DNA from: Candidatus Melainabacteria bacterium
GTDB lineage: Bacteria; Cyanobacteriota; Vampirovibrionia; 2-02-FULL-35-15
NCBI GenBank assembly: GCA_016193285.1
Contig: JACPSL010000025.1
Location: 58,523 to 122,522 of the forward strand
Length of the DNA stretch: 64,000 nucleotides
Reading direction: 5' to 3'
Every line of letters starts with the position of its first letter. Position 1 is the stretch's first letter. A program made the translations under genes and the position numbers. Shown here one piece after another: positions 4,801 through 40,975 of the stretch. The notes under the pieces were generated by a model. That model was given only the letters and a program-made list of their open reading frames with translations, searched no databases and was not told where the DNA came from.

Positions 4801-4959
4801 GGTTAGTATTTTATTTTATACTTAATATTCCCTTTTTATACATAGCACAAAACAAAGTAAGGTTAAAAACCTTGTTTTTTTACTGTTTTCAATGTATTTT
4901 TTAGTTTTTCTATCTTCTAACAAGATATAATTTTATAGGTAAACGAAAAAAAATTAAAC

Positions 4960-6812: not shown

Positions 6813-6824
6813 AGCAAAAACCTT

Positions 6825-7322: not shown

Positions 7323-7488
7323 CTCAGGTGATGATGACTTTATTGATGTAGAACACTTAAAAAGATACATGGATTTATCTCCAGAGAAAAAGCTAGAAAT
7401 ATTAGAAGAAATGAGAGATTTCTTTTGGGTATCTATGCCTGAAGAATCAAAAAAGGTTTGGGAAAAACTTAAAGAAAAAGGCTGGTAA
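7312..7488 (+). CDS. small helical protein translationally coupled to the NTase (ATGA overlap)
   Basis: An internal Met of ORF 7273..7488 (MRANSGDDDF...) overlaps the NTase stop. It is acidic and helical. Confidence 0.3.
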   Translation: MRANSGDDDFIDVEHLKRYMDLSPEKKLEILEEMRDFFWVSMPEESKKVWEKLKEKGW

Positions 7489-7989: not shown

Positions 7990-8083
7990 ATTAATTTTTT
8001 CCTTCTTAAAAAATATTTTTTAATTGGATTTAGTTTAACAGGATTAAAAATATTTTCAAATACGTATTTTGTATAAATTAATT

Positions 8084-9346
8084 TTAAATTCTTCTAAGTG
8101 CTAATACTGTGTTATGTCCTCCAAATCCTAAAGCGGATACTAATGCAATATTTACTTTTTGTTCTCTTGCTTTATTTGGTACATAGTCTAAATCACACTC
8201 AGGATCAGGGGTTTGGTAATTAATTGTTGGGGTGATAATTCCATGCCCTATTGTTAAAACGGTTGCAGCAGCTCCAAGTGGACCAGCAGCACCAATTAAA
8301 TGGCCAGTCATAGATTTTGAACTTGTAACAGCAAGCTTTTTAGCATGTTCACCAAATACTTTTTTAATAGCAAGTGTTTCCCTACTATCATTTAAAGGAG
8401 TTGATGTACCATGTGCATGAATGTAGTCTACATCTTCAAGCTTAATTCTTGCATCTTTAATAGCTTCAAGCATTGCACGTGCACTACCATCTCCTGTTTC
8501 ATGTGGAGCAGTAATATGTGAAGCATCACAAGTAGCACCACCACTTATAATTTCAGCATAGATTTTAGCACCCCTTTTTTTTGCATGTTCTAGTTCTTCA
8601 AATACAAATACTACTGATCCTTCACCCATTACAAAACCATCTCTTTCTTTACTAAAAGGGCAAGATGCCATTTCCGGAGAACAATTTCTTTTTGAAAGTG
8701 CACCCATGTTACTAAAAGATGCCATGCTTACTGGGTTTATTGTAGCTTCAGTTCCACCTGTGATAACTACATCTGCTTTGTTTAATCTAATCCAGTTTAA
8801 TGCATCTAGCATAGAATCAAGTCCGCTAGCACAAGCAGTAGAATCAGATTTCGCTCTGCCTTTTAATCCCCATAATATACCGATATAACCCGAAGGTGCA
8901 TTTGGCATAAGTCTTATAATTGTTCTTACACCAATTTTTTTTTGTCCTTCAGTTATTAAAATGGTTTGATCATTACAGGTGGTGTTTATACCACCAATAC
9001 CAGTTCCAACAAATACAGCAACTCTCTCAGTATTTAATTTTGAAAAATTAATTAATGAATCTTCAATTGCAAGCTTACTTGCTACAACAGCAAACTGAGT
9101 AACTTTATCCATATCTTTTTGTAATGTTTTTAAAAGTTTTGGATCAGTAAAGTAATTTTCTAAATAAAAATTTTTAATTTCACCTGCAATTTTTATATCA
9201 ACTTTTTCCCAATCTTTATTTTCACTAGTACTAATCCTAGAAACACCACTTTTGCCTGATTTCAGACTTTCCCAAAAATCAACTTTTCCTATACCTACAG
9301 AAGTTACAGGGCCAATTCCAGTTATTACAACTCTTTTGTGTTGCAT
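8084..9346 (-). CDS. fabF: 3-oxoacyl-[acyl-carrier-protein] synthase II
   Basis: KAS II active-site regions (DSACASG Cys; HAHGTSTPLND and GHLIGAAG His motifs), 420 aa. Confidence 0.9.
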   Translation of the reverse strand: MQHKRVVITGIGPVTSVGIGKVDFWESLKSGKSGVSRISTSENKDWEKVDIKIAGEIKNFYLENYFTDPKLLKTLQKDMDKVTQFAVVASKLAIEDSLINFSKLNTERVAVFVGTGIGGINTTCNDQTILITEGQKKIGVRTIIRLMPNAPSGYIGILWGLKGRAKSDSTACASGLDSMLDALNWIRLNKADVVITGGTEATINPVSMASFSNMGALSKRNCSPEMASCPFSKERDGFVMGEGSVVFVFEELEHAKKRGAKIYAEIISGGATCDASHITAPHETGDGSARAMLEAIKDARIKLEDVDYIHAHGTSTPLNDSRETLAIKKVFGEHAKKLAVTSSKSMTGHLIGAAGPLGAAATVLTIGHGIITPTINYQTPDPECDLDYVPNKAREQKVNIALVSALGFGGHNTVLALRRI

Positions 9347-25389: not shown

Positions 25390-26778
25390 ATGAATTTTAT
25401 AAACAGAAAAAGCGAGCTTGAAACATTAAGCAAGAAATGGGATGAAAAAAAACCTCACTTCTTTATTGTCTACGGGAAAAGAAGAGTAGGAAAAACTGAA
25501 TTAATAAAACAGTTTATTAAAAACAAAAATGGTATTTATTTCTTATCAGATAAAAGAACTGAGATTGAACAATTAAAAGAGCTAAGTAATATTATTGCTG
25601 AGCATTATAATGACTCTTTTTTAAGATCACGAGGTTTTAGCAACTGGCTTGAGATTTTTAGTTATATAAAAGAAAGAAAAAAAAAACTAATACTTGCAAT
25701 AGATGAATATCCTTATTTAATTGAAGCAAATAAAGCAATTACCTCCATATTTCAAAAAGGATGGGATGAGTATTTAAAAAACGAAAATGTTTTTTTAATT
25801 CTTTGTGGCTCAAGTATTTCTGTTATGGAATCAGAAGCATTAATCTATAAATCTCCATTATACGGAAGAAGAACAGGTCAGATTTTACTTAAACCTCTTT
25901 TATTTAAAGAAAGTGCAAAATTTTTCCCAAAAAAGAACTTCTCTGATTTTTTGTCAATTTTTACTATTACAGGTGGTATACCAGCTTACTTATTGCAAAT
26001 AGAACCTGATTTAAGTTTAAGGAAAAACATAGAAAGAAAAATATTTTCAAGAACAGAGTTCTTACATAATGAAGTAGAATTTATTTTAAAAGAAGAATTA
26101 CGAGAACCCAAAAATTACTTCGCAATATTAAAAGCTCTATCGTTTGGAAAAACCAAATTTAGTGAAGTAGCTAATGAAACAGGCTTAACGAAAAATGTTT
26201 TAACAAAATATTTGAATACTCTTGAAAGGCTTCAGTTAATTGAGAAAGAAACCCCAGTTACAGAAAAAATACCTGAAAAATCCAGAAAAGGAATTTATAA
26301 GATTTCTGATAATTTTTTTAAGTTTTATTTTCAATTTATTTATCCAAATAAAAGTTATATTGAATTAGAAAATTATTCCGAGGTAAATAGAAAGCTTGAT
26401 GAATCATTTAACATTTTAGAGTCTCAGTGCTATGAAAAAGTTTGCATGGAGCTTGTTCTTGATTTTCAGGATAAATTTTTTATTTTTGAAAGAATTGGAA
26501 GATGGTGGGAAAAAGATAATGAAATTGATATCGTGGCTACTTCATCAAGAACAAAAGAAATATTGTTTGGGGAAGTAAAATGGTCATCAAAGCAGGTAGG
26601 GACAAATATTCTTGAGGCTTTAAAATCAAAAGCAAAATTAGTAGACTGGAATATAAACAATAGAAAAGAATATTATGTCTTATTTGGCAAAAGTGGTTTT
26701 ACTCCTTCATTAATTAAGCAAGCCAGGAAAGAAAATGTGTTGCTTGTTCACCAAGACAAGGCAAAATTTAATTCTTAG
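25390..26778 (+). CDS. AAA-type ATPase of the DUF234 family (archaeal-ATPase-like)
   Basis: Walker A GKRRVGKTE, a Walker B-like LAIDEYPYL, and a C-terminal DUF234-like segment; 462 aa. Confidence 0.65.
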   Translation: MNFINRKSELETLSKKWDEKKPHFFIVYGKRRVGKTELIKQFIKNKNGIYFLSDKRTEIEQLKELSNIIAEHYNDSFLRSRGFSNWLEIFSYIKERKKKLILAIDEYPYLIEANKAITSIFQKGWDEYLKNENVFLILCGSSISVMESEALIYKSPLYGRRTGQILLKPLLFKESAKFFPKKNFSDFLSIFTITGGIPAYLLQIEPDLSLRKNIERKIFSRTEFLHNEVEFILKEELREPKNYFAILKALSFGKTKFSEVANETGLTKNVLTKYLNTLERLQLIEKETPVTEKIPEKSRKGIYKISDNFFKFYFQFIYPNKSYIELENYSEVNRKLDESFNILESQCYEKVCMELVLDFQDKFFIFERIGRWWEKDNEIDIVATSSRTKEILFGEVKWSSKQVGTNILEALKSKAKLVDWNINNRKEYYVLFGKSGFTPSLIKQARKENVLLVHQDKAKFNS

Positions 26779-26790
26779 TTGATTGTGTAA

Positions 26791-26837
26791 AAAAAACAAA
26801 AAGATTTTTTGAGGTGAGGTGAGAGTGATGGGGTAGG
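26791..26837. repeat. island repeat family A, copy 1 (AAAGATTTTTTGAGGTGAGG + G-rich tail)
   Basis: One of five imperfect copies at 26791, 27551, 28251, 29076 and 29549. Each lies immediately 3' of a minus-strand cassette. Confidence 0.7.
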
Positions 26838-27525: not shown

Positions 27526-27550
27526 AATACATTTAATTTTAGCACTCTAC

Positions 27551-27608
27551 AAACACGAGAAAGATTTTTTGAGGTGGGGTGGGAGTGGTGGGGGGTAATG
27601 GGGTGAGG
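27551..27608. repeat. island repeat family A, copy 2 (longest G-tract: GGTGGGGTGGGAGTGGTGGGGGGTAATGGGGTGAGG)
   Basis: Seen directly. Confidence 0.7.
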
Positions 27609-28186: not shown

Positions 28187-28250
28187 CTACAACAAGTGAT
28201 CTAATATACATGTAACCAAAGGTTACATAAGTATTTTAATTAACATTACA

Positions 28251-28298
28251 AAAACACAAGAAAGATTTTTTGAGGTGAGGAGTAAGGGGATAGAGTGA
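28251..28298. repeat. island repeat family A, copy 3
   Basis: Seen directly. Confidence 0.7.
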
Positions 28299-28303
28299 CT
28301 TAC

Positions 28304-28459
28304 TTATGCTGTTTTCTTGCTCACTTGTTTTTTAAGTTTTGCTGCTTCTTCTCTAATATATTTTACATATTCTGAAGCAGACATCTTTTTTGTCTCTTCG
28401 TAGATTTTTCTTCTTATTTTATGTAATTCTTCAAGCGGATCTTTTTCTTTTCTTTTCAT
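28304..28459 (-). CDS. small basic protein partner of PIN paralog 2
   Basis: MKRKEKDPLEELHKIRRKIYEE... aligns with the other two partners. Using the internal Met (not the tracked start at 28507) removes the 38-nt overlap with the PIN gene. Confidence 0.5.
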   Translation of the reverse strand: MKRKEKDPLEELHKIRRKIYEETKKMSASEYVKYIREEAAKLKKQVSKKTA

Positions 28460-28469
28460 ATGATTCTCC

Positions 28470-28988
28470 TTATTGTGAAACAAATTCTCTTGGTGAAACA
28501 ATTTCAATTAAGCTATAACCTTCTCGTAAATTAATTACGTGAACACCTTTAATAGTTCTAGCTCGTACGATATGTTGAAAGTTCCATGAGACAATAAAAT
28601 CACAATGATTTAAACTAGCAACAGCAATGTGAATAGCATCATTGATAGCATTAGAAGGCATCAATCCTTCATTAGTATAAATCTTAGCTAGATTATATGA
28701 TTCATTGCTTGGAGTTAGAATCTCAGGTTGATATTTTTCAACCAATCTCAATAACTGTTTACGCCTTGTGTCATAAGCTCTATTAATTTCAACTTCAACA
28801 ACTTCTGATATACAAAGTAAATGACTTTTACTTTTACCATAAACTTCTAAAAAATCTATAGTTAGCCTGTACTCACTTCTATTGGTTTCAAGAGCTAAAT
28901 TCCATATAGAGGTATCAATATAAAGCTTTGTTTTCTTAATCATTATAATGATTATAACAGCTAGTTGTTCTGTCATGATATTCAACAA
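28470..28988 (-). CDS. PIN-domain protein (VapC-like toxin), paralog 2
   Basis: KLYIDTSIWN...DAIHIAVASL...SWNFQHIV...IEIVSPREF is close to paralog 3. The likely true start is MIKKTKLY at 28943, behind a TGnTATAAT box. Confidence 0.65.
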   Translation of the reverse strand: MLNIMTEQLAVIIIIMIKKTKLYIDTSIWNLALETNRSEYRLTIDFLEVYGKSKSHLLCISEVVEVEINRAYDTRRKQLLRLVEKYQPEILTPSNESYNLAKIYTNEGLMPSNAINDAIHIAVASLNHCDFIVSWNFQHIVRARTIKGVHVINLREGYSLIEIVSPREFVSQ

Positions 28989-29075
28989 AAAATATTTCTA
29001 AAGAAAGGAGCAAAAGAAGATCTTCTTGAACTAAATTACTACTTCGCTAGAAACTAGATGATAGAAGAACTTTCT

Positions 29076-29118
29076 AAAAAACACAAAAGATTTTTTGAGG
29101 TGAGGAGTAGGGGGATAA
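29076..29118. repeat. island repeat family A, copy 4
   Basis: Seen directly. Confidence 0.7.
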
Positions 29119-29427: not shown

Positions 29428-29547
29428 ATGATAAGTAACCTTGAAGGTTTAATAGCAGTTGGCTCAATATTAATTCCTGCAATACTTTTAACTGTATACT
29501 TCATATACGATCAAAATAAAACTAAAAAAAGAGAAAAGAAAAGTTAA
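29428..29547 (+). CDS. possible 39-aa single-TM peptide (MISNLEGLIAVGSILIPAILLTVYFIYDQNKTKKREKKS)
   Basis: Not in the supplied track (below its size cut-off). TATAAT at 29403 and AAGGAG at 29415 precede the ATG at 29428. One TM helix plus a basic tail. Confidence 0.3.
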   Translation: MISNLEGLIAVGSILIPAILLTVYFIYDQNKTKKREKKS

Positions 29548-29548
29548 A

Positions 29549-29590
29549 GAAAAACACAAAAAGATTTTTTTGGTGAGGGATGGTGGAAGG
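29549..29590. repeat. island repeat family A, copy 5
   Basis: Seen directly, immediately 3' of the five-gene minus operon. Confidence 0.7.
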
Positions 29591-29603: not shown

Positions 29604-30386
29604 TTATTCTACAATAATTATTGTTTTCCCAGATGGTGAGAACTTAAATTCAATACCTTCATTTTTTCTTGACAACACTTTTCTAAGAGCAATGTCAAAG
29701 TCTTGCCAATTTTGAACATTGTTTTGCATATCATTTGTAAAATCTATTTGCTCGGCAGACTCAAATGAATAACCTAGAATGTCGTTATCCACTAGTACAC
29801 GCCTTGGTATAACTCTAATATTTCCATTTTTACTTGTAGTAACTGCATAGTGTAGGTTCCCTCTCCATGTGCCTTCTCGATGAATAATCGTAAATATTGT
29901 TTTACCTGGCTCTGATTCACCTTTTAGTTCTCTTAGTTTAGGAGTTAGCTTTCTAAGTGAGCTTACTATATCAGATGTATCAAGACCATTAATTTGATAT
30001 TCTTTTAAAGCTAAAGCAGCAGCTATCAATTCTAATACGCTTGGATCAAGGGGCGCTCTTTCATGTGTGGCGTTCTCGCAGCTTTTTAAAAATGACCAAA
30101 ATTCCTCATACCTACCATACCTATCAGCTGCGTCCTGAAAACTAATATGAATTCTTTCAAGTTCTTTTTTTGCTTCGTTTAAGTTAGTTATTTGTTCTTT
30201 TGTTTCACTAGTTGTTTCTGCTCTACTCTTGAATTTGTCAGTTGTTGACTTGCTGAATATTGTATATGAGTCAGGAGTTGGCTTTAATATTCCTGATGGT
30301 TTTGGTTTCCCTTCTTCTTTTTTCTGTGCCTGCCCAACAGCTAGTGAGGGAAGCATGTTGTGTGTCATTAATGATACTGAATACAT
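29604..30386 (-). CDS. hypothetical protein (last gene of the caspase-like operon)
   Basis: A 260-aa ORF; no motif recognised. Confidence 0.5.
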   Translation of the reverse strand: MYSVSLMTHNMLPSLAVGQAQKKEEGKPKPSGILKPTPDSYTIFSKSTTDKFKSRAETTSETKEQITNLNEAKKELERIHISFQDAADRYGRYEEFWSFLKSCENATHERAPLDPSVLELIAAALALKEYQINGLDTSDIVSSLRKLTPKLRELKGESEPGKTIFTIIHREGTWRGNLHYAVTTSKNGNIRVIPRRVLVDNDILGYSFESAEQIDFTNDMQNNVQNWQDFDIALRKVLSRKNEGIEFKFSPSGKTIIIVE

Positions 30387-30480
30387 AAAAAATCAGCTCC
30401 TAGAAATACAATGCTTGTATGCAAATAAATTTGATAATGGTACAAAACTAACAGGTTCTTTAGTTCAAAAAACTGCACAT

Positions 30481-32274
30481 TTATGCAGCAATAATTTCTT
30501 CATTAATTGTTAATCTTTGATTCAATGGATTTAAATTGTTTATTAACTTAATCTTAACTGGTTTTTTATCGGGGGGTTGTTCTGTAGAGTATTGAATCAC
30601 TTTAGCGTTTTGTTTGTATTTGCTGTAATGTGCTAACTTTTTTACAGTGTGCATAGCATGAAAAATATTTCCAAAGGATGGATTTAAAGGCTCATTTCTT
30701 ATTCTCTGGTATTTTAAAAACTTATAATACCAGGATAAATAATAGTTAAATGCTGAAGATCTATCTTCACCATCAAACCCTTTCATGCTGTGATTAACGA
30801 CTAATGCTTCTTTTGCAGTTAAGGCAGCATATGACTCTCCATCTCCTGAAGAAGAAGTAATTATCGTCACATCTTTTACAGGAAGCTGCTTATTTCCAAT
30901 CTTAAAGTTTTGCAAGCAAGCAATTATTTTATCACCTTGAATTTCAGATCTACATGAGTCTGCAATTATAACAAACTTCATGCTCTTACAAAGTGGTCCA
31001 CCATTATCATCTAAGCTTGCAATTGCTTTTGCAATCTCTTCAGACGTAATATCACTGTCTGAAGCTTTTATACATCCATTCTTATCTCCATGCATATTAT
31101 AGTGAAATATGAAGGTTGTTTTACCACTAGCTTTTGCATTGTTTGCAGCTTTTATAAATCTATCTAAGATATTTTTTTTTGTAGCTGTTAAAGCTTTTGG
31201 TAAGGAACCATCTTTAACTTGTGGTAGTTCATCCCATATCCCACGGTTTTCTACACAAACAGTAAAGTCACTAATATTAAAATTTTCTTTGTAAGTCATT
31301 CCTATTTCAGCAAGGTCGTTTTCTATCTCAACTAATTCTCCAGGCACACTTGCTAAGAAACAAGCCGTACTCCCATCTTTTGGAATGTCAATTTTATAAA
31401 AATTCTCCCAGGATAATTGTTGTCCCTTAAAATTATTAGTTTCTAATTTTATTTTTTGTTTAATAAGTTCAATTAACTCATCTTCTGTTTTTATGTTACT
31501 TAATTCTAGACAACTTAATCCAATAAAAACAGGCTCACTATTTTTACTTGTAAAGTTATTAGCTAAGATGAATTCAAACACTCTGTGTATATTTCCATCA
31601 CCATTAGATATTCCAATACATTCAAGAGGAATACCAGTATCTTCCTTAACCTTATTTAAAACTGCATCCAGATTAAAATTCTTATCATTTTCTTGAAGGA
31701 TTTCAGTGAGTGTTTTATTTAAGAATACTTGGGTTTCCTTAAATGTAACTGTTTTTTGAAGGTTATTCAAAATAGCTTTTAGTTTTTTTGCAGTAGAAAT
31801 TACTTCACTAGCATATGGTTCATATTCATATAAACTTTTTGCTTGGTTTTCAAGGATAAAGTTAGGATCTATCAGGGCTAATTTAAATGCTGCTTCTTTT
31901 CTTATTTCTCTTGCTTTTTTGCTGCCAAGAGTTTCTTCTAATTTTTTGTAGTCGGTAAATATTAATCTTGGATTTTTTTCAACAGATGCATCTATACCTT
32001 CTTTAGGTATTTTTTCTAATTCTTCTTGATTCTTCTTATTTATTTCAACAGCGTTTGTAAAAAAAACAGATTTTATGAATCTTCCAAGTAATATAAATGG
32101 TGAAAAAAGTATTTTTAGCATTTTTACGAAAGTGCTACTTTTATCTTCAAGTACTTGAACTGATTGATACTGAGAGTTATTGGATTTAGCAAGTAAGGAG
32201 TTATTATGAGAACTAACATGTTGCAGATTATTCTTGTCCTCAACTTGATTTCTAAATCTAAAGCTAATTTCCAT
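30481..32274 (-). CDS. caspase/metacaspase-like (clan CD, C14-type) cysteine protease-domain protein
   Basis: The C-terminal half has FIFHYNMHGDKNG ... (46 aa) ... FVIIADSCRSE. This is a His-Gly / Asp-Ser-Cys dyad with the spacing and flanking beta-strand pattern of metacaspases (FHYSGHG ... DSCHSG). Confidence 0.6.
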   Translation of the reverse strand: MEISFRFRNQVEDKNNLQHVSSHNNSLLAKSNNSQYQSVQVLEDKSSTFVKMLKILFSPFILLGRFIKSVFFTNAVEINKKNQEELEKIPKEGIDASVEKNPRLIFTDYKKLEETLGSKKAREIRKEAAFKLALIDPNFILENQAKSLYEYEPYASEVISTAKKLKAILNNLQKTVTFKETQVFLNKTLTEILQENDKNFNLDAVLNKVKEDTGIPLECIGISNGDGNIHRVFEFILANNFTSKNSEPVFIGLSCLELSNIKTEDELIELIKQKIKLETNNFKGQQLSWENFYKIDIPKDGSTACFLASVPGELVEIENDLAEIGMTYKENFNISDFTVCVENRGIWDELPQVKDGSLPKALTATKKNILDRFIKAANNAKASGKTTFIFHYNMHGDKNGCIKASDSDITSEEIAKAIASLDDNGGPLCKSMKFVIIADSCRSEIQGDKIIACLQNFKIGNKQLPVKDVTIITSSSGDGESYAALTAKEALVVNHSMKGFDGEDRSSAFNYYLSWYYKFLKYQRIRNEPLNPSFGNIFHAMHTVKKLAHYSKYKQNAKVIQYSTEQPPDKKPVKIKLINNLNPLNQRLTINEEIIAA

Positions 32275-32352
32275 AATTAAAAAGATATGTTTAGGATTTT
32301 TATCCTAATATTTACAAAGTAAAAAGAAATTAATTTTTGATAATTTTTATGA

Positions 32353-33378
32353 TTAAGTGTTTTGAGTAACGTAATTCCAGGTAGGTGTAAATATCTTATC
32401 CTTTATAGCATTGCCAGCAAATTGATTTAAAAGTCCACCAGCACAAATTCCAGTGCATATTGTAAGCCCAATTGCTACCCAACCTACAGGGCTTATTAAA
32501 GCAAATGCTGCAGCTATTCCAAGTCCACACAAAGCTATATTTGTCCAAGCTTCACTAGTTCGCCCACCGTGAAATTTATTAACAATGCCAGCTATTTCAA
32601 AACCTGCTCCAAGTACTGACGCAATACCACCTAACCATTTAAGAGTACCTGCAAAAAATCCTTTCCATGAAGCTCCTGTTCCATTGATCGCTCGTCCTAC
32701 CAATGTTCTAGTCGACCATAACTTTTTATCATAAGATGCCAATTTAAATGCTTTATCAGCACCCATATATTTAGCTCTTTCGAAACCACTTGCAATTCCA
32801 CCTAGTTGAGCCATATTTACAGGATGAGTAAAAGCATCTCTTGCATTAGTACCTTTAAGAGTTTGTATAATGTCGTACTTATCTAATAAGAAATCTGGAT
32901 CTTTTATATGATCTTGTATGAGTTTGCATATTTTTAAGAAGTCTTCAGCATTAGATATTTTAAAGTTGCTTGCTAGTTCTTCTAACTTTTCTTTATTATA
33001 TTTTTTGTCTTCATCAAGGTTATCATAATTATCCTGTTCAGTATTTTTTCCTAACTGATCAATTATGTTACCTATTTGAATTACATCGAGCTTTCCACCT
33101 GTTACAGTATAAAAATGTTCTGCAAGAGATCTCATTTCTCTTTTATCTCGTTCTATTTGTCCATTAAGTTCTAAGAGTCCTTGATTATCTCTGGGTATTC
33201 CAATAAGAGCTGACTGAATAGCACTTTCTCTTGCAGTATAGCTTAAGCCTTTTTTGTTTTTATATGCTTCTCTTAGTTTTGCTAATTTAGGTTCAACATC
33301 ACTACCACCATCTCCAAGAGCTGTACTTGTTCTTCTACTACTACCAGTACGTGGTACAAGTATTTTAAGTATTATCAT
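32353..33378 (-). CDS. glycine-zipper membrane protein (soluble N-domain plus C-terminal 2-3 TM Gly/Ala-zipper helices)
   Basis: C-terminus LGGIASVLGAGFEIAG...RTSEAWTNIALCGLGIAAAFALISPVGWVAIGLTICTGICAGG...KDKIF; paralogous to the C-terminal domain of 37321..38121. Confidence 0.55.
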   Translation of the reverse strand: MIILKILVPRTGSSRRTSTALGDGGSDVEPKLAKLREAYKNKKGLSYTARESAIQSALIGIPRDNQGLLELNGQIERDKREMRSLAEHFYTVTGGKLDVIQIGNIIDQLGKNTEQDNYDNLDEDKKYNKEKLEELASNFKISNAEDFLKICKLIQDHIKDPDFLLDKYDIIQTLKGTNARDAFTHPVNMAQLGGIASGFERAKYMGADKAFKLASYDKKLWSTRTLVGRAINGTGASWKGFFAGTLKWLGGIASVLGAGFEIAGIVNKFHGGRTSEAWTNIALCGLGIAAAFALISPVGWVAIGLTICTGICAGGLLNQFAGNAIKDKIFTPTWNYVTQNT

Positions 33379-33502
33379 AATATTCTCCTAAAATAATATT
33401 TTGTTATTCACTACATACAAAGCAATATGTTGTAGTTAGTTGATAGGAGATTATTGAAAGGGAGCAAGATTTATTGTTAACAAACTTATAACTAATTTGT
33501 TC

Positions 33503-35800
33503 TTATTTTTCTTTAGGATCAAATCGTCTGTCATTCACAGATATAGGTATGTTTAAATATTTATTATGTTCATTTTGAGGGACGCCAGCAGCAACAAGTG
33601 TGTTACGGTCAAATTTTTGTGTTGGATGGAGTAATTCGTGTTGTTCTTGATCGTCCTGATCCTTCTTTGTTGGAACAAGTCTTTCAATACTATCTTTTAC
33701 TAGATATGCCCAGGAGTAAGATGCTGCCCTATTTAATGATTCTGTTGGCAAAGGATAAACATGAGGTCTTCCAGCAAAAAGTTTTAATTCGTCTGTTTCT
33801 CCTTTTTCTTTACGGTGTGCTATTAATATCTTTATACAGTCTAAAAGCCTAAGAGCTGTTTTATTGTCAGGATTATTTTCATCTTTTATATTTTCATCAT
33901 TAATTTTGCTTTCATCTGGTGCTTTAAGATCTACTTTTAATGTTTCTGAAATATCTTTTAAAAGACAATCAGTTTTAACTACATATTCTTTAAAATGACT
34001 TGGTTTGTTGTTTGTATCAAGAACAGCTATTAGAATAGTACACCAATCATCTCTGTAATAAACTTTTACTCTTAAATTATTATGGTTAAATGCTGGCAAT
34101 GATTTACCTAGTACTGATCCTATTTTCTCTTCTAGTTTTTTTTCATCTGTTGTTGTTTCGTAGATATTCTCTGGCAATTTAATTGAACCTACAAATTCTT
34201 TGTCTAAATCTTTTCTTTTTTTTCTACTTAACGCAGAATCAAACGAACTTCTTAATTCCTCTCCATCTTTACCTTGAATCTCCCTTATATAGCCACTTTT
34301 TAAATCTGCCAAATCTCCTGCAAAAATAACTTTTCTACTTCTCTTCTCTTGTATTTTAAATGCTTCAAGAATATCTTGATTTGGGTCAGTAGTAGCTTTT
34401 ATAAAAACTACATGCTCAATAAATAATTTTCTTAGCTTTTCTGTTGTATCATCATTGTCATTGCTCTTTAATTTCGATTTTTCATCCTTATCTATTATTT
34501 TGGCCTTCTCTAGCTCATCTAGAAATTTATCTTTAGTAAATGTAATTGAATAAGCTTGGTAGTTTCCTGCTGCATCTTTTTTCCAGATTAGCGATTCACA
34601 GCATAGAGTCTCACTTGGAGTACCTTCACTAGTCTTAAAAGTGGAAAGTGTAATTCTGTATTCATCTTCATTAATAAACGGCGGCCTTCTATTTGGTGGA
34701 ATATTTGTAGTCGAAGATTTTGGGTAACCTTTTAAATAATCATTAACTACTGGATTATTTTTTTCAATCTTAACTTGTGAAATAGATTCTGGTCTATAGC
34801 TAGAATCTGTTGATTTTCTGTATAGATCTTCGTATGTTGTACTTTCTATAAATTTTGCACCATCTTGAGCTAGTTGTTCTTGATCATCACTAGCTACATA
34901 TGTTTTATACAATAGCTCTGTAAACCTCTGATGTCCATTTTTAAATTCAACTTCACTACCAGGAGGGCGATAACTTCTGCCTGTTGGGCTTAAAAATATT
35001 ACATTTTTAACCTTGTCCTGCTCAGATGAGTTGACAGCTAAATCCTCAAATTCCCTAGTCCCCCACAACGCAATTTTTATTTTTTTATCAGGATCAGTTG
35101 ATCCAAAATATTCAATTGTCTGTTTAGCTTTAGCTAATGGAATAATAATTTGTCTGTTTTCTTTTTTACTAGAAAAGTTTTCATCTCCTACTATGTAGTG
35201 TATATCCTTTCTGTCTACTATCCACGCTGTTACAGTCTGTAGTGTTTTACCTTCTCTATCTTTTACTTTATAAGTACCAAGACTTATAACATTTGAATCT
35301 TCTTCATGTGGAGTTTCTTTTTTGTATCGATTTATGTGTGCTAATAGATCTCTTGGGGTGTCTGTTTTTTCAAGCCTTACAATTATTTCAGGTTTAGGAG
35401 GAGAAGGTCTTGTATCTGATGGTGGAGCTGGTTTTGGAGTAGTGCTACCAGTAGAAGAGTCCTCTATCAGCTTTCCATCTTTTGACAAATTTAATAACTC
35501 TAGTACATTTTTCTTTTGCTCATTGCTTAGAGATGATTCTCCTAAATGTCTAATGTAATCAAAATAAAGATTTTGTTTTGAACTAAATTCATCTTTTGTA
35601 ATAAGAATTTGGTTAAAGTTACTAAGATGACCAATACTTAAAGCAGCTTTTAATTCTTCTGTGGTAAGTAGTCCATCTTTTTTTCCAACTACCTTACCAG
35701 AGCGATCCAGTATTCCAATTGAAAGATCAGTTTTTAATAGCTGTTGTATTTTTTCTATTCTTTGTTGTATAGAAGGAGTTGTTGTAGCAGGTGGATCCAT
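33503..35800 (-). CDS. large hypothetical protein with a Pro/Thr-rich linker
   Basis: A 765-aa ORF with a low-complexity linker (STGSTTPKPAPPSDTRPSPPKPE); no catalytic motif recognised. Confidence 0.5.
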   Translation of the reverse strand: MDPPATTTPSIQQRIEKIQQLLKTDLSIGILDRSGKVVGKKDGLLTTEELKAALSIGHLSNFNQILITKDEFSSKQNLYFDYIRHLGESSLSNEQKKNVLELLNLSKDGKLIEDSSTGSTTPKPAPPSDTRPSPPKPEIIVRLEKTDTPRDLLAHINRYKKETPHEEDSNVISLGTYKVKDREGKTLQTVTAWIVDRKDIHYIVGDENFSSKKENRQIIIPLAKAKQTIEYFGSTDPDKKIKIALWGTREFEDLAVNSSEQDKVKNVIFLSPTGRSYRPPGSEVEFKNGHQRFTELLYKTYVASDDQEQLAQDGAKFIESTTYEDLYRKSTDSSYRPESISQVKIEKNNPVVNDYLKGYPKSSTTNIPPNRRPPFINEDEYRITLSTFKTSEGTPSETLCCESLIWKKDAAGNYQAYSITFTKDKFLDELEKAKIIDKDEKSKLKSNDNDDTTEKLRKLFIEHVVFIKATTDPNQDILEAFKIQEKRSRKVIFAGDLADLKSGYIREIQGKDGEELRSSFDSALSRKKRKDLDKEFVGSIKLPENIYETTTDEKKLEEKIGSVLGKSLPAFNHNNLRVKVYYRDDWCTILIAVLDTNNKPSHFKEYVVKTDCLLKDISETLKVDLKAPDESKINDENIKDENNPDNKTALRLLDCIKILIAHRKEKGETDELKLFAGRPHVYPLPTESLNRAASYSWAYLVKDSIERLVPTKKDQDDQEQHELLHPTQKFDRNTLVAAGVPQNEHNKYLNIPISVNDRRFDPKEK

Positions 35801-35805
35801 AGTTA

Positions 35806-36933
35806 TTAATTTGTAAGTGGAACAAAATTTCTTACTCCTTTACCTTCTGTATGTTCAACTTCAGCAATACTTCCATCAATAAGATTAGTAATTGTTTTAT
35901 CACTTGCACTAATACTTAAAACTAAGTCTTGCATAAGATTCATACCTCTTTCCCTAAGTGAAATTAATTTATTATAAAAATCTTCTCCAAATCTTTCTAT
36001 GACAGAATTTTTACCGGCAGGGCGTTGAAGGTAGTCATCTTGTCCAAGAAATATAGCTTTTTTGTTTTTAATTTCGTTTGCATTTTCTCCTTTTAAAGTG
36101 AGAGCTGAAACAAAGTCAATTAATTTTTGACCTCTTAAAAATACATAGCCTTCATCTTTTTCTAATTTATCTAAGTAGTCTTGTTTATATGTTCCTCTAA
36201 ATGCAAGTCTTGTATTACGGGATGAGTCTTGGTCTGAGTACCATATTATAAAAGCAGGTTTATTTGTACCTTTTCTAATATAGTGAACTATTTTTACCTT
36301 ATTCCCAGCATCTACTGATTTGACATCTGATGGTTTAGTCCCTTCTGCAATATCAGTATCTATTGCTCTTTTTATATCATCAGGTATAGTTCCTGCTGGT
36401 GTTGCACTTGTTGATGTTACAGTATCTGCTGGTTTTATTTTCTTAATTAGATCTTCTAATTTTGTAAGTATTGCTTTTTGATCACCAGTTAAATCAGTAG
36501 CTGCTTTAAGCTTGTCAATTAAGTCAAGAAGTTTTTCTTCAGCTTCTTTATTCTTAAAACTAAAACTACCGTCCGGATTTCTAACAATTAATCTTTGTGA
36601 AATTAGTATGACTACTGGTTCCACAAAGCCCGGGAAAATTTTGCTTAAGAATTCTTTAGCTTGATTTATTTCCTCTGGAGTATAATTAAAGTCATCTGGC
36701 TCGAGAGTTTCATTTGCACCTCTTTTTGCAATTTTTTTAACTCTTTCTTGATCTACTTCATTAGTACCTCCTGCTTTGATAAAGCGATCAACATTCTTGT
36801 TCAGTTGATCATACAGTGCTCCTTGGGCAGGATTAGTCTTTTTTTCTTCTTCAATCTTATTTTGAAATTCTTTCTTACTAGTAGGTTTTCCTGCGTTAAA
36901 TAATTTACTGATTAAATCTAATGTTAAACCCAT
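35806..36933 (-). CDS. hypothetical protein (first gene of the minus-strand operon)
   Basis: A 375-aa ORF, 5 nt upstream of the next gene. Confidence 0.5.
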   Translation of the reverse strand: MGLTLDLISKLFNAGKPTSKKEFQNKIEEEKKTNPAQGALYDQLNKNVDRFIKAGGTNEVDQERVKKIAKRGANETLEPDDFNYTPEEINQAKEFLSKIFPGFVEPVVILISQRLIVRNPDGSFSFKNKEAEEKLLDLIDKLKAATDLTGDQKAILTKLEDLIKKIKPADTVTSTSATPAGTIPDDIKRAIDTDIAEGTKPSDVKSVDAGNKVKIVHYIRKGTNKPAFIIWYSDQDSSRNTRLAFRGTYKQDYLDKLEKDEGYVFLRGQKLIDFVSALTLKGENANEIKNKKAIFLGQDDYLQRPAGKNSVIERFGEDFYNKLISLRERGMNLMQDLVLSISASDKTITNLIDGSIAEVEHTEGKGVRNFVPLTN

Positions 36934-36986
36934 GACTTTCCCTCCAAATATTTATACATTTATAGAAAGGAAAATATTAATTAAAA

Positions 36987-37028
36987 TTGACAGCTAAAAA
37001 AATATTAAACTTTGTAACTTGCTGTCAA
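36987..37028. promoter_or_regulatory. inverted repeat TTGACAGC-N26-GCTGTCAA in the divergent intergenic region
   Basis: Seen directly, ~55-95 nt upstream of the minus-strand operon start. Both arms are TTGACA -35-like hexamers facing outward. Confidence 0.35.
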
Positions 37029-37320
37029 TATTCTGTTTGCACTTACTTTGTAGTATCTGAGTAAGTAGAACCTCAAGTTCTATTTATTCTTAATACAGTT
37101 CTTACTTTGAATCTTAGTAGTTTTCTATTAAGGTCTTGAAGTAAACTTATTATTAAATCAAATATTTAAGCATAATATTTCTTTAGCTTAATAAAGCTAA
37201 ATGCAATTATAGATTGGTTTTGATAAGCTTATATGTTTAAGTATTTGATCTAAGGTTACTAGTTAATTAAGGTTAAGAAGTGATTAAGTAAAATTAAGTA
37301 AGAAGTAAAATAACAAAACA

Positions 37321-38121
37321 ATGTTTATATTAATAGCAGTTGTTGGAAAAGTTTTAACGATAGCAGCAGGAACTCCACTTGTAGCTTTTAAGAAAGCATT
37401 TAATGTTTTGACTGCAAGTAAAAGTGATATTCCTAAGTTATATTTAGAGGCTGAGCAAATGGCAGGCAAAGTGGCTATTGAAAAAGGATGGTTTGAATAT
37501 TTAGGTCATCTAATAGAAAGATTAGGTTATGGTATAAGAGCACAATTAGGTTTATATGGAATTGATAAGAATGGAGCTATTAAACATTTGTCTGAACTTT
37601 CAAGTGAATTTAAAGAGAAAGGTGGTTTACTGTCTGCTCTATCTAAAGGTTATCCTAAATTTGGAGAAGCTATGAAAGCTGCTACTACAGCTATTCCTGA
37701 GCTAGGAGGAAAAGCAATATTAGGTTTTAGAGGATTGGGAGCTATGGGTTTAGGTGCTCTTGGTGCTTTAGGAGTAGGTATATTTTCAATTGGTCTTATA
37801 ATTAGTTCTTATAGAGCAATAAATGCAAAAAGTAAAACGGAATGGGCAGGACCTGTAAAAACTACTACGTGGGATAAATTAACTACTTTGGCAGGACTAG
37901 CAGGTACTGCAGGTGCTGCAGCTTTATTTATTCCAGGAGCAAGTATAGCTTCGTTTGTCTTAATACCAGCTGCAGCAATAATGGCTGCTACTGGATTTGT
38001 CATGGATAAGATTTATAGTGGAACTACTTTTTATCATATGCCTGATCAGCTACCATATCCATTGAACGATGTAGCAAGATCAGTATTTAACGTAGATAGG
38101 CATATCCCTAGAATGCAATAA
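37321..38121 (+). CDS. glycine-zipper membrane protein, paralog of the 32353..33378 C-terminus
   Basis: GLGAMGLGALGALGVGIFSIGLII...KSKTEWAG...LAGLAGTAGAAALFIPGASIASFVLIPAAAIMAATGFVMDKIY. Confidence 0.55.
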   Translation: MFILIAVVGKVLTIAAGTPLVAFKKAFNVLTASKSDIPKLYLEAEQMAGKVAIEKGWFEYLGHLIERLGYGIRAQLGLYGIDKNGAIKHLSELSSEFKEKGGLLSALSKGYPKFGEAMKAATTAIPELGGKAILGFRGLGAMGLGALGALGVGIFSIGLIISSYRAINAKSKTEWAGPVKTTTWDKLTTLAGLAGTAGAAALFIPGASIASFVLIPAAAIMAATGFVMDKIYSGTTFYHMPDQLPYPLNDVARSVFNVDRHIPRMQ

Positions 38122-38155
38122 GTTTTGCTCTTGACATTAAAGTTAAAAATGTGTT

Positions 38156-38668
38156 ATGGTTGGATTAAAACCATATTTAAGATTTAAAAAAAGGTTGATA
38201 ATAAAAATGGATGTAGTTAGTTTATATGGCTCATATGTACAAGAAATAGTAATTCCAAAGTATCAGATTAATCAAAAACTTCTGAAAATGGTAGCTGCTA
38301 ATAAGTATGAAGAAATTGCTTCTCGTGAACTACCTAAATTGCATCGTGAAGCAAACAAACTTTCATTAGACTTAAAAGAAGCAGGAGGAGATCCAAAAAA
38401 AGCAAAAAAAGTAAAAAAACAACTAAGAGCCTTAGAAGTAAGAGCAAATAAACTAAATGAAATGTTTGCAGTTGTCAGTGACGATGAATTAGCAGCTGCT
38501 AAAGTAAATCCATCTAGAAAACAAGTTGAACAAATTATAAATGCTACTGTTGAATTAAATCAGCCTACTAAAAGTGAAACCCCACAAGAAAGTGTAAAAT
38601 CCCAAGTTGGTAAAAAATTAGTACGGGACAGCATGAATAATATTAAAAACAGTCAACAAGCTGCCTAA
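38156..38668 (+). CDS. hypothetical coiled-coil, lysine-rich protein
   Basis: ORF directly downstream of the Gly-zipper gene; the true start may be the internal MDVVSLY. Confidence 0.4.
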   Translation: MVGLKPYLRFKKRLIIKMDVVSLYGSYVQEIVIPKYQINQKLLKMVAANKYEEIASRELPKLHREANKLSLDLKEAGGDPKKAKKVKKQLRALEVRANKLNEMFAVVSDDELAAAKVNPSRKQVEQIINATVELNQPTKSETPQESVKSQVGKKLVRDSMNNIKNSQQAA

Positions 38669-38689
38669 ATTAGTTAGTTAGTTGAATGT

Positions 38690-38959
38690 TTAACTTCTTA
38701 AGAGACTAATTATACGTTCTAGAATTTTAAATCTATTTTCAATAAGCATGGATATAAGATTAACTCCTGCAGTTAAATATTTCATCTGAATTGTTAATGT
38801 GCCAATAGCTTTCTGTGCAATTGCTTTAGCTGTTGCGCTTGCAGTTGGATCCACTATAATCGCGTTATTCTGTGCAAGTTGTCCTTCAATTGTATTAGCT
38901 TCAGTCGTTACCCTTCCTAATTCACTACCTAAATCTAATCCGCCTACTGCTCCTGGCAT
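38690..38959 (-). CDS. hypothetical small Ala/Gly-rich protein
   Basis: An 89-aa ORF convergent with 38156..38668. Confidence 0.3.
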   Translation of the reverse strand: MPGAVGGLDLGSELGRVTTEANTIEGQLAQNNAIIVDPTASATAKAIAQKAIGTLTIQMKYLTAGVNLISMLIENRFKILERIISLLRS

Positions 38960-39096: not shown

Positions 39097-39669
39097 TTAC
39101 ACTTCTAATTTACGAGTAATATGGAAATATGAATTTTCAATTTGGGTTATCATTTCATTAAGTGTTTTATTGTCAAACTTTAAATCATTTAGTTTAATAA
39201 TCCCTTTAAATATTCCTATTTTATTTAAGTCAATTCCTTTTTCAATAATTTTTTGGGTGGGTATATTATCAGAGATAAAAAAGGAAAATTTATCATATTC
39301 AATATATAAAGGATTAATTTTTTCAAGAATGTTTTCAATGAACAAGATTATAGGAAAGTTATTACTTATACATGCATAAGATTGTGCTTTAGAACCAACT
39401 GAAAAAGCAATGTTAATTTTTCTGTCAGTAAGATACCTGTTTAAAAATACAGATCTGCAAATCGTTGAAAACTCTTCAAATAATCCAAATATTGATATGA
39501 TCCATCCAATAATTTTTGCCTCTAATTTATTTTCTTCCAGAACTTTTTTTATTTCGCTCGTGTTTTGAGCAGTAATAGTTACATCATGACCTCTTGACTT
39601 TAGTTCACTACTTAGTGCCTTTATAAAAGGAATGTGTTTAGGGTTATCAATGTCAAGCCAGATGTGCAT
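39097..39669 (-). CDS. DUF354-like protein fragment (N-terminal ~190 aa of a ~340-aa family; likely truncated)
   Basis: N-terminus MHIWLDIDNPKHIPFIKAL...LKSRGHDVTITA matches the conserved DUF354 start (MKIWIDI.N.PHV.F). A family B promoter/stub repeat sits in front of it. Confidence 0.4.
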   Translation of the reverse strand: MHIWLDIDNPKHIPFIKALSSELKSRGHDVTITAQNTSEIKKVLEENKLEAKIIGWIISIFGLFEEFSTICRSVFLNRYLTDRKINIAFSVGSKAQSYACISNNFPIILFIENILEKINPLYIEYDKFSFFISDNIPTQKIIEKGIDLNKIGIFKGIIKLNDLKFDNKTLNEMITQIENSYFHITRKLEV

Positions 39670-39727
39670 TTTTTACTTTATATTGTTTTTTTTTCATGAC
39701 TTTGACTTTATTATACCCAGTTTTTGC
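39670..39727. repeat. island repeat family B, copy 1 (promoter plus MKKKQYKVK antitoxin stub)
   Basis: The minus strand reads CTGGGTATAAT-AAAGTCAAAGTC-ATGAAAAAAAAACAATATAAAGTAAAA. The stub runs out of frame into the DUF354 ORF. Confidence 0.65.
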
Positions 39728-39790: not shown

Positions 39791-39988
39791 TTAACCTGCT
39801 CTTTTAAACTCACTAAAAAGTTTGTCAATATTTTTAACAGGTCTAACTTGTTTTCTTAATTTTTCGAATTCTCTTGCACCTTTACTTATATAAGCAAAGT
39901 ATTCTTTTGCATTCATGTTTTTGGTTTTTTTATAGTTTTCTCCACGGATTTTATGTAATTCTTTTAACGGATCATCATTTTTATTCAT
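39791..39988 (-). CDS. small basic protein partner of PIN paralog 3
   Basis: MNKNDDPLKELHKIRGENYKK...YFAYISKGAREF; family shared with 26857..27054 and 28304..28459. Confidence 0.5.
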   Translation of the reverse strand: MNKNDDPLKELHKIRGENYKKTKNMNAKEYFAYISKGAREFEKLRKQVRPVKNIDKLFSEFKRAG

Positions 39989-40015
39989 TGTATTTACCCC
40001 CTTATTTATTAATAT

Positions 40016-40501
40016 TTATTTTCCCAAGAATTGTCTTGGTGAAACTAATTCTATTAATGCATAACCTTCTCGTAGATTAATTATGTGTACTCCTTTGACA
40101 ACCTTTGCTTTGACTATATGCTTAAAGTTCCATGAAACAAGAAAGTCGCATTTGATTAATGATGCTATTGCAATATGCATAGCATCATCTCTATATTTAG
40201 CTGGTATTAATTTTTCACTAATGTAGGTATTTGCTAAGTTAAGTGTTTCTTCTTTATCAGGTTGAATAACTTCTGGGCTAAATGAATCAATTAATCTTGC
40301 AAGTTCATTTTTTCTTTTAGCACTTGCCCTATTCATCTCATCTTCTACAAGGTCTGAGATTAGTACTGTATAATTACTTCTCTTGTTTCTAAGCATCTTA
40401 AAAAAATCCCATGTTACTAAACAATCTGCTCTTTCTGTTTCGAGAGCAAAATTCCAGACTGAAGTATCAATATAAAGTTTTAGTGGTTTCCCCATTTTCA
40501 A
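40016..40501 (-). CDS. PIN-domain protein (VapC-like toxin), paralog 3
   Basis: LKLYIDTSVWN...DAMHIAIASL...SWNFKHIV...IELVSPRQF. Confidence 0.65.
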   Translation of the reverse strand: MKMGKPLKLYIDTSVWNFALETERADCLVTWDFFKMLRNKRSNYTVLISDLVEDEMNRASAKRKNELARLIDSFSPEVIQPDKEETLNLANTYISEKLIPAKYRDDAMHIAIASLIKCDFLVSWNFKHIVKAKVVKGVHIINLREGYALIELVSPRQFLGK

Positions 40502-40545
40502 TTTTTACTTTATATTGCTTTTTTTTCATGACCTTGACTTTGCTA
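40494..40545. repeat. island repeat family B, copy 2 (promoter plus 13-codon MKKKQYKVKIENG stub directly before the PIN start)
   Basis: Seen directly. Confidence 0.65.
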
Positions 40546-40661
40546 TCCTAAAGTATCTTAATTATATCCTCGGGGTAGATTTAAGTACAGAAGCAGGCTT
40601 TAACTCAAAGCCCATATTTACTTGCAAGAAATGTTTATCCATGGTCAATATTTCCTTAATT

Positions 40662-40934
40662 TTAAATTCTTGCATAACGACCATTGAAGACAAATCTACA
40701 AAAGAAATCCTTATAAACTACAGAATCTATTAATTCAGGGGTTAGTTCCTTATAATCTACTTCTGCACTTATACACCCTATTAATTCTTTAAGTAAGGCT
40801 TTATCTTCAGGATCCTCAAAATTTTCCTCTTCAAGAAAAATTATTATTCCTTCCTTGAAATTACTTAGATCTAAAGGTTCTAAAGGTTTTATTTCTCCAT
40901 TTTCAATTTTTACTTTATACTGTTTTTTTTTCAT
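40662..40934 (-). CDS. DUF104-type (KVKIENGEIKPLEPLDL) antitoxin-family protein
   Basis: The N-terminal consensus is typical of small antitoxins paired with PIN toxins. Confidence 0.55.
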   Translation of the reverse strand: MKKKQYKVKIENGEIKPLEPLDLSNFKEGIIIFLEEENFEDPEDKALLKELIGCISAEVDYKELTPELIDSVVYKDFFCRFVFNGRYARI

Positions 40935-40975
40935 GACTTTGATTTTATTATACCCAGTTTTTGCTTATACTTGGT
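40894..40975. repeat. island repeat family B, copy 3 (the intact promoter and 5' end of the DUF104 antitoxin gene)
   Basis: Seen directly. Confidence 0.65.

Follow-up and report, generated by a model that had tools for sequence, protein, structure and literature searches.

An unnamed clan-CD cysteine protease beside Gly-rich membrane proteins in a clade-specific, hypervariable island of groundwater Melainabacteria

Pore-forming proteins licensed by a protease are an established theme of antiphage defence, as in bacterial gasdermins with their caspase-like protease (bioRxiv 10.1101/2021.06.07.447441) and in Pepco/EACC1 (PMC12642450). C-terminal Gly-zipper modules also occur in antibacterial toxins, among them TelE, an LXG effector of the type VII secretion system (PMC10434224), and the ionophoric toxins of contact-dependent inhibition (CDI) (PMC11630599). 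Here, we analyse a locus with features of both groups in a 64,000-nucleotide (nt) stretch of contig JACPSL010000025.1 from a Candidatus Melainabacteria bacterium (assembly GCA_016193285.1); this whole stretch is called the window below. The locus comprises five minus-strand genes, g375, g765, g341, g597 and g260, named by the length of their products in amino acids (aa), together with g266, g170 and g89 (Table 1). A preliminary description had read it as an operon built around a caspase-like protease that activates a glycine-zipper membrane effector. A true protease does lie beside membrane proteins with Gly/Ala-rich hairpins in a variable island rich in toxin–antitoxin (TA) genes, but the comparative data contradict an operon built around the protease as an effector activator. 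What is new is an unnamed clan-CD protease family and a clade-specific island, not a demonstrated new system.

The protease g597 is the sole match to a curated Pfam family among the nine local proteins: it passes Peptidase_C14 (PF00656) with E 2.3e-5 and a score of 24.7 bits (cut-off 21.4), a match that spans aa 364-483 and only profile positions 46-175. It does not match the Pfam C13 model (PF01650), nothing significant was returned from NCBIfam, PADLOC or PHROGs (a generic caspase match in PADLOC is weak, E 0.0045), and searches of PDB sequences with g597 and with its family profile gave nothing relevant and no solved structure. In an alignment of 42 family members the only invariant columns are H395, G396 and C441; Q446 is near-invariant, and the family motifs read HYxMHG and ESCxSGxQ. 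The AlphaFold2 model built on this alignment has a mean predicted local distance difference test (pLDDT) score of 81.8 and a predicted template modelling (pTM) score of 0.81, with residues 85-577 confident. Foldseek against the PDB places caspase-7, -8 and -3, GPI transamidase and legumain at the top and also finds metacaspases, structural similarity to C13 equals that to C14, and a fold search of BFVD returned giant-virus caspases only and no phage relatives. The model has the clan-CD arrangement, a central six-stranded sheet flanked by helices, with His(-Gly) after strand 3 and Cys after strand 4. The caspase-type His-Cys dyad claimed for the fourth gene is therefore borne out by the C14 match, the invariant residues and the caspase-like model, and the caspase-hemoglobinase fold that had been set beforehand as a test is what the model and its Foldseek matches show. 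On the strength of this model g597 is a true clan-CD protease with an intact dyad and predicted catalytic activity. It would work like a metacaspase or legumain and passes the structural and catalytic tests of the clan. By sequence, its marginal C14 score apart, it lies outside the curated C14 and C13 models, hence we place it in a new family within a known clan. Its N-terminal hydrophobic helix probably tethers it to the membrane. Pfam, NCBIfam and the model revealed nothing of the sensor type (STAND, TPR, SAVED, CHAT-associated or similar) on the protease or beside it.

A word-index homology search with g597 returned the query only; HMMER, run exhaustively against 1.84 billion cluster representatives (E ≤ 1e-3), recovered 45 proteins, the best at 2e-67 and 37% identity, with alignments over residues ~100-577 that far exceed the Pfam C14 domain. 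At ~45 clusters the family is small. It shares clan CD, fold and dyad with metacaspases and orthocaspases (MEROPS C14) and with legumain and GPI8 (C13), but stands apart from both: C14 is passed by one of the 42 members, g597 itself and marginally, and by none of its 41 relatives, one relative passes C13 (8.6e-5), and Pfam misses the other 40. A further difference is a conserved domain of ~200 residues, helical with a small beta part, in front of the protease domain and preceded by variable N-termini. The latter are of three kinds, namely signal-peptide- or anchor-like, an Arg-rich amphipathic helix, or a long helical extension. About a quarter of the members have the first kind, in one case starting with a lipobox-like sequence, and this points to an enzyme outside the cytoplasm in these members.

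Six contigs encoding relatives of the protease were retrieved, and in all six the gene stands alone amid housekeeping genes: between an ABC-F ATPase and small open reading frames (ORFs)/GIY-YIG (P0012), in the mutually syntenic neighbourhoods LpxB-X-…-UDG-ArgJ-PilO (P0011 and P0029), in a response regulator-X-RecA region (P0016), in purC/purS … hemB/D/C (P0017), and adjoining NAGPA and glnA (P0019). When the nine window proteins were compared with these contigs by tblastn, g597 alone was detected, and no Gly-rich membrane protein is found among the immediate neighbours of the six relatives. The preliminary description had itself stated that homologues always occurring alone in unrelated contexts would refute its reading, and for the protease all six relatives do occur alone. 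A degenerate DNA pattern for FVFHYMMHG added one short contig only, duplicating a known context. The two syntenic contigs (L085 and L088, which encode P0011 and P0029) have ~33% GC, and the LpxB-X-UDG-ArgJ-PilO neighbourhood that they share may be the ancestral site of the protease gene in a lineage close to the window organism.

The counterpart of the locus was compared, with MurC as anchor, in seven metagenome-assembled genomes (MAGs) of groundwater Melainabacteria (L003-L009; 71-75% MurC identity). Five of them (L004, L005, L006, L007 and L009) carry a cluster of uncharacterized genes, bordered by the M14-peptidase/murC genes on one side and a short DUF354-like gene on the other. There is no such cluster in L003, where the M14 peptidase directly adjoins polysaccharide genes, and L008 is different again, also without a cluster; the island is wholly absent from both and hence dispensable. 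The closest layout to that of the window is found in L006. It has the DUF354-like gene (190 aa) and an 89-aa gene, followed on one strand by a 192-aa gene and a 248-aa Gly-rich membrane protein; on the other strand are genes of 304 aa and 656 aa with a 6-nt junction, a 314-aa Gly-zipper protein and a 214-aa protein, and a TA pair, the M14 peptidase and murC form the distal end. Pfam matches among 34 island proteins of the relatives comprise EF-hand, Gly-zipper_Omp (one above threshold), CxxCxxCC and TPR, and include no peptidase, NTPase or nuclease. Since these five islands have homologues of g341 and g266 and no peptidase of any kind, the proposed unit of a protease and adjacent membrane proteins does not hold across the clade. 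The island itself is clade-specific and hypervariable within this groundwater Melainabacteria (Vampirovibrionia) lineage.

Many plus-orientation island proteins have MF(I/L)LQ-like N-termini, Pro/Gly-rich low-complexity regions and a C-terminal Gly-rich hairpin, and the hairpin proteins form tandem paralogue arrays, four in L007 and five in L009. The MF(I/L)LQ-like start recurs on otherwise dissimilar proteins of L004, L007 and L009 (in L007 at 4854-5792, 5930-6838, 6965-8095 and 8230-8607). In the window, g341 starts MIILKIL and g266 starts MFILIAV, which could reflect a targeting or export signal shared with these proteins.

Hydropathy gives both g341 and g266 Gly/Ala-rich hydrophobic C-terminal helices. 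A word-index homology search with g341 returned the query only, and its membership in famA, an island family of six members including g341 (BLAST clustering), is firm: it matches the L006 314-aa protein (6907-7851) at 3.7e-5 in BLASTP and the famA profile over the C-terminal hairpin in hhalign (94%, E 1e-7). Predicted from hydropathy to be a Gly/Ala-rich multi-helix membrane protein, g266 is probably the orthologue of famC in L005, L006 and L007, given its hhalign match to that family (55%, P 1.2e-4 over 190 columns), its rank as the best non-member match of the famC hidden Markov model (HMM; E 0.028), and a position and strand relative to its neighbours that are the same as for famC genes. 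The two proteins had been taken for paralogues, which they do not appear to be: BLASTP between them gives E ~0.7, Smith-Waterman z is 1.8 against global and 0.46 against local-composition shuffles, and in the relatives they belong to two different families without profile-profile similarity. The glycine zipper claimed for both stands as far as Gly/Ala-rich hydrophobic helices and the three GxxxG motifs of g341 are concerned, but g266 has no GxxxG and neither protein matches a Pfam Gly-zipper model. One famA homologue, a 312-aa protein of L007, does pass Gly-zipper_Omp (PF13488) at 26.1 against 25 bits, and another matches weakly. Gly-zipper_Omp/SlyB-Pcp proteins are small lipoproteins that bear a signal peptide and a lipobox, whereas famA proteins are ~300 aa long, lack a signal peptide and have the zipper at their very C-terminal end.

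Seven island proteins encoded by the relatives have in common a leader-like motif of the type G-[VIQ]-A-x-KKEE, which lies 15-75 residues from the N-terminus and reads, for instance, GIGVAPKKEEG in the 314-aa protein of L006. An HMM trained on these seven proteins only, for a motif picked by eye before testing, ranks g260 first of 4126 non-training ORFs at 8.8 bits versus 4.9 for the next; within the window the next ORF scores 0.3 bits. The g260 product is an ORFan with the leader and no hairpin, and has no match in Pfam or NCBIfam. The motif suggests that g260 is an island-type gene and not a partner of the protease. A famA gene is directly followed by further leader-bearing genes in the relatives, and the window order is g341–g597–g260; if the leader match is taken at face value, g597 is flanked by island-type genes on both sides, as though it had been inserted there as a single gene.

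The remaining genes have counterparts in the relatives by position. The pair g375 and g765 corresponds to the 304-aa and 656-aa EF-hand proteins of L006, with a junction of 5-6 nt in both genomes. The two L006 proteins are mutually paralogous (E 2e-12) and both pass Pfam EF-hand models (EF-hand_5), which neither g375 nor g765 matches; what these soluble ORFans have is a degenerate motif only, LNKNVDRF near the N-terminus of g375 (aa 44-51) and KDGLLTTEELKA in g765 (aa 41-52), the latter a large protein with a Pro-rich linker. No Pfam or NCBIfam family matches g375, its AlphaFold2 single-sequence model is unusable (pLDDT 43.6), and a Smith-Waterman z of 3.95 against the L006 304-aa protein (3879-4793) gives a hint of similarity. 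A word-index search with g765 found itself only among 5.8 billion proteins, and g765 has no family match in Pfam, NCBIfam, PADLOC or PHROGs, no significant internal repeats and no significant similarity to the L006 656-aa protein. Segment-wise phmmer found no significant domain common to g375, g765 and g260, and no significant internal repeats. Nothing in either g375 or g765 is sensor-like, and the roles of sensor or target once proposed for these two ORFans find no footing. The g170 gene takes the place of 182-192-aa genes in L005, L006 and L007 with no similarity detected by hhalign, and g89 that of genes of 87-89 aa in L005 and, in the opposite orientation, in L006, again with no sequence similarity by HMM or hhalign.

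We favour a composite account, at about an even chance of being right, in which a diversifying, membrane-active and probably conflict-related island has recently acquired a protease that has no obligate trigger role. One layer would be the hypervariable island between the DUF354-like gene, at the edge of a polysaccharide cluster, and the M14-peptidase/murC genes. One strand of it would encode one or two soluble proteins with EF-hand-type N-termini (g375 and g765) and then one to five leader-bearing proteins without Sec signals, which usually end in a Gly-rich hydrophobic hairpin (as in g341; g260 would have the leader without the hairpin); the opposite strand would encode the membrane protein g266, rich in Gly and Ala, and the small helical proteins g170 and g89. 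The second layer would be g597, inserted singly between g341 and g260 from a family that is solitary elsewhere. The island proteins may be diversifying membrane inserters used in biological conflict, a set resembling polymorphic membrane toxins with immunity proteins or a defence locus. As all of them lack signal peptides, the famA proteins and g266 would insert into the cytoplasmic membrane through their hydrophobic hairpins and leave the bulk of each protein on the cytoplasmic side. Presence or absence among relatives, paralogue arrays, TA neighbours and the adjoining surface-polysaccharide region point to the diversifying pressure typical of conflict loci. The protease would be membrane-tethered and active, on substrates of its own or only opportunistically on its new neighbours, without being required to trigger a pore-former. 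The analysis shows which genes are present, the fold and the catalytic residues, how the family is distributed, and the synteny and presence or absence among relatives; membrane topology, a conflict role and any substrate relation are inferences.

Several points weigh against this composite account. The links of g375, g765, g170 and g89 to the relatives consist of position, tight junctions and short motifs only, with negative or weak sequence tests. Over the 4133 ORFs of all retrieved DNA the leader HMM gives g260 an E of 0.54, and the motif is short and chosen by eye, hence the island membership of g260 is suggestive and not proven. We infer the function of each gene, and the comparison spans six protease contexts together with ±10 kb of seven related genomes. 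The shared orientation of g597 and its neighbours and the small spacing between them (78 and 94 nt) would suit a joint transcript, and a functional link between the protease and the membrane proteins in this one genome is possible from their adjacency. Finally, the solitary protease genes at ~33% GC (L085 and L088) might come from the island clade, which would make a trans-acting relation between protease and island possible.

Another explanation, which we consider unlikely, is a polymorphic island of secreted toxins or effectors, in which the leader proteins would be exported, their Gly-zipper hairpins would enter competitor or host membranes, the divergent proteins would serve as immunity proteins or chaperones, and the protease would be an effector or a leader processor. 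A single N-terminal motif on otherwise variable proteins, the tandem arrays of L007 and L009 (4 and 5 genes) and content that is hypervariable among close relatives agree with it. As in TelE (PMC10434224) and the CDI ionophoric toxins (PMC11630599), the island proteins have a C-terminal Gly-rich hydrophobic module and no Sec signals, and the relatives have tandem diversifying paralogues with a common N-terminal motif. Unlike those toxins, however, the island has no recognisable immunity partner, and no immunity-like gene pairing is definable. No LXG, VENN, PAAR or Rhs domain and no secretion apparatus was found with Pfam in the window proteins or the 34 island proteins of the relatives, nor is there a WXG100 or CdiA-type domain in the window or the relatives' loci. 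The conserved end is moreover the hairpin, the part expected to be toxic, the reverse of classical polymorphic toxins.

A quite unlikely reading dispenses with conflict altogether and takes the genes as structural or regulatory envelope components, strain-variable like O-antigen regions, with a membrane-anchored protease that matures envelope proteins. Its appeal is the site, with a DUF354-like gene of glycosyltransferase type and a 20-kb polysaccharide cluster on one side and the M14 peptidase/murC genes on the other, together with the Gly-zipper_Omp match in a relative, the EF-hand Ca-binding motifs of the relatives and the signal or anchor segments in part of the protease family. Gly-zipper_Omp proteins are typically envelope lipoproteins. 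No signal peptide or lipobox is present on the island proteins, however, no envelope-synthesis enzyme is encoded in the island, and its absence from L003 and L008 makes it dispensable.

Improbable, in our estimate, is the protease-gated system of the preliminary description, with the five genes as an abortive-infection or toxin system in which g597 cleaves g341 and/or g266 to yield a pore-forming effector and g375 and g765 act as sensors or targets. The intact dyad and confident caspase fold, the shared strand and short gaps, the hydrophobic Gly-rich hairpins of the neighbours and the TA-rich variable location would all suit it, and protease-licensed pore-formers are established defence logic (bioRxiv 10.1101/2021.06.07.447441; PMC12642450). 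The likeness to those systems is one of layout only, a caspase-fold protease beside potentially membrane-inserting proteins in a variable island. The pairing is not conserved, given that the protease family is solitary in six contexts and the island lacks a protease in five genomes; there is no sensor fused to or beside the protease and no recognisable effector, the PADLOC evidence is the weak generic caspase match, the signal or anchor N-termini of about a quarter of the family suggest an extracytoplasmic enzyme, and g260 appears to group with the island set such that g597 looks inserted. PADLOC 2023 gave no match to a known system, and the libraries used showed no dedicated Pepco, EACC1 or CATASP models. 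A looser, trans-acting version of the same idea would have the leader-like motif as the recognition or cleavage site of the unnamed clan-CD protease, encoded elsewhere (at the LpxB-X-UDG locus) in most genomes of the clade and inside the island here; we give it an equally slim chance. Two further candidates were dropped for lack of a matching family: a gasdermin, for which the eight neighbouring proteins have no Pfam or PADLOC match, and a prophage module, for which PHROGs returned noise only.

For annotation, a confident model of a rare, unnamed branch of the clan of caspases, metacaspases and legumain is useful, and the family helps to trace the history of caspase-fold enzymes in the sister lineage of Cyanobacteria. 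The comparison also puts on record an island of Gly-rich membrane proteins with leaders in uncultured groundwater Melainabacteria, a group with little-known biology, and the case is a cautionary one: the pairing of a protease with membrane proteins looked gasdermin-like until relatives were brought in, and then the picture dissolved. Were the protease to process island proteins after all, a small chance in our view, it would define a new protease-licensed membrane-effector family; were the leader its site, the island would represent a new protease-matured, polymorphic, membrane-active family in Vampirovibrionia.

Table 1 Features of the locus, in window coordinates
Feature	Position (nt)	Strand	Remarks
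g375	35806..36933	minus	375-aa ORF; first gene of the minus-strand cluster
g765	33503..35800	minus	765-aa ORF
g341	32353..33378	minus	341-aa ORF
g341 C-terminal Gly/Ala-rich hydrophobic hairpin	32380-32655		aa 242-333; no signal peptide
g597	30481..32274	minus	597-aa ORF; clan-CD cysteine protease (model-based)
g597 disordered N-terminus			in front of the hydrophobic/amphipathic helix
g597 hydrophobic/amphipathic helix FVKMLKILFSPFILLGRFIKSVFF	32059-32130		aa 49-72
g597 helical domain with small sheet	31378-32022		aa 85-299; conserved
g597 caspase-fold domain	30544-31377		aa 300-577
Catalytic His motif HYNMHG (His395-Gly396)	31087..31104	minus	directly after strand 387-394
Catalytic Cys motif DSCRSE (Cys441)	30943..30960	minus	directly after strand 433-439
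Terminator-like hairpin and T-run	30472..30489	minus	overlaps g597 stop codon
g260	29604..30386	minus	260-aa ORF
g260 leader-like motif AVGQAQKKEEGKPK	30300-30341		aa 16-29; HMM match
Divergent intergenic region, putative control region	36986..37029	.	9-nt inverted repeat; upstream of g375
g266	37321..38121	plus	266-aa ORF; divergent from the five-gene cluster
g170	38156..38668	plus	Lys-rich ORFan, probably coiled-coil; downstream of g266
g89	38690..38959	minus	small ORFan
DUF354-like 190-aa gene	39097..39669	minus	Pfam DUF354 2e-6; conserved right-hand island boundary
47-nt repeat, last copy	29544..29590	plus	begins 14 nt past g260 stop
47-nt repeat, other four copies	26785-26831, 27545-27591, 28246-28292, 29071-29117		
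66-nt repeat, three copies	39662-39727, 40494-40559, 40899-40964		
Paralogous PIN-toxin/antitoxin pairs	28304-28988, 39791-40501		direct orientation

The five minus-strand ORFs have exactly the coordinates and lengths first reported, separated from g375 to g260 by gaps of 5, 124, 78 and 94 nt, and searches of Pfam, NCBIfam, PADLOC and PHROGs revealed no signature of an NTPase, a nuclease or a housekeeping protein in any of them, as had been stated. The deposited record (locus tags HYY52_05645-05680) lists g597 as 'caspase family protein' and the other genes as 'hypothetical'. All nine local proteins are singletons at 90% identity clustering, and PADLOC and PHROGs gave weak, compositional matches only, nothing in PHROGs being better than noise at E > 0.008. 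The window is chromosomal DNA of ~30% GC, uniform at 0.30-0.32 without a compositional break at the locus, and its 64 kb contain zero tRNA genes and Rfam families. To the left lie the housekeeping genes purF, fabF, an S1-domain protein, ftsW/rodA, ribF, carB, aroE and murC, and to the right a 20-kb sugar-nucleotide/polysaccharide cluster. With housekeeping genes on both flanks and no phage family match, the locus is no structural or lysis module of a prophage, in line with the original reading. The DUF354-like gene covers the N-terminal half of its Pfam model only (190 aa of 349) and has 39-41% identity to equally short genes of L006 (936-1508) and L005 (583-1143); the homology of this boundary gene reaches E 1e-40. 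Because related MAGs have it at this length too, the short form is conserved and not a local truncation.

The setting is indeed TA-rich and flanked by repeats, with PIN-type and other TA cassettes on both sides and repeats of 47 and 66 nt. The 47-nt repeat has the plus-strand core AAAGATTTTTTGAGGTG[A/G]GG, with 4 core matches versus 0.05 expected by chance, and is absent from all other retrieved loci. Each of its five copies lies directly 3' of a minus-strand cassette (TA genes, small ORFs or g260), a layout that may be cassette-like, attC- or terminator-like; no integrase was found among the scanned ORFs, to which the integrase search was confined. The 66-nt copies are the 5' ends (MKKKQYKVK…) of antitoxin-like genes, and the one directly before the DUF354-like gene suggests past recombination among TA cassettes. 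The paralogous PIN pairs bracket the 29.6-39.7 kb segment and could mediate its loss or exchange by homologous recombination.

The claimed palindromic operator upstream of g375 exists as a 9-nt inverted repeat, with arms ATTGACAGC at 36986-36994 and GCTGTCAAT at 37021-37029, but each arm contains an outward-facing -35-like box, TTGACA, and the region has no excess of promoter-like sites (42 versus 46.7 expected). Similarly, a common strand and short gaps agree with a single operon, but the terminator-like hairpin at the g597 stop codon does not, and transcription of g260 may be partly separate. Terminator-like sites are in total no commoner than in shuffled sequence, which makes this hairpin weak evidence.

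Between the M14 peptidase and the first TA cassettes of the window, a 462-aa ATPase_2/DUF234 protein of the archaeal AAA type (25390-26778, plus strand) adjoins a ParE-like toxin gene and may be another island passenger. In two relatives, a protein of 518-700 aa with a CxxCxxCC (putative metal-chelating) domain and a TPR match sits between the DUF354-like gene and the small helical gene (L005 1178-3280, minus strand; L007 209-1765, plus strand), and is absent from the window and L006. L004 (1866-6214), L009 (270-3154), L005 (5747-7030) and L007 (3475-4695) have tandem paralogues of ~400-470 aa that are Pro-rich at the N-terminus and share a conserved motif, YYWLPDGSLL. The motif is reminiscent of beta-hairpin cell-wall or glucan-binding repeats; these paralogues have no Pfam or PDB sequence match, and the famB/F profile gave nothing relevant against PDB sequences. 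A local stretch of g375, IVRNPDGSFSF, is similar to this motif.

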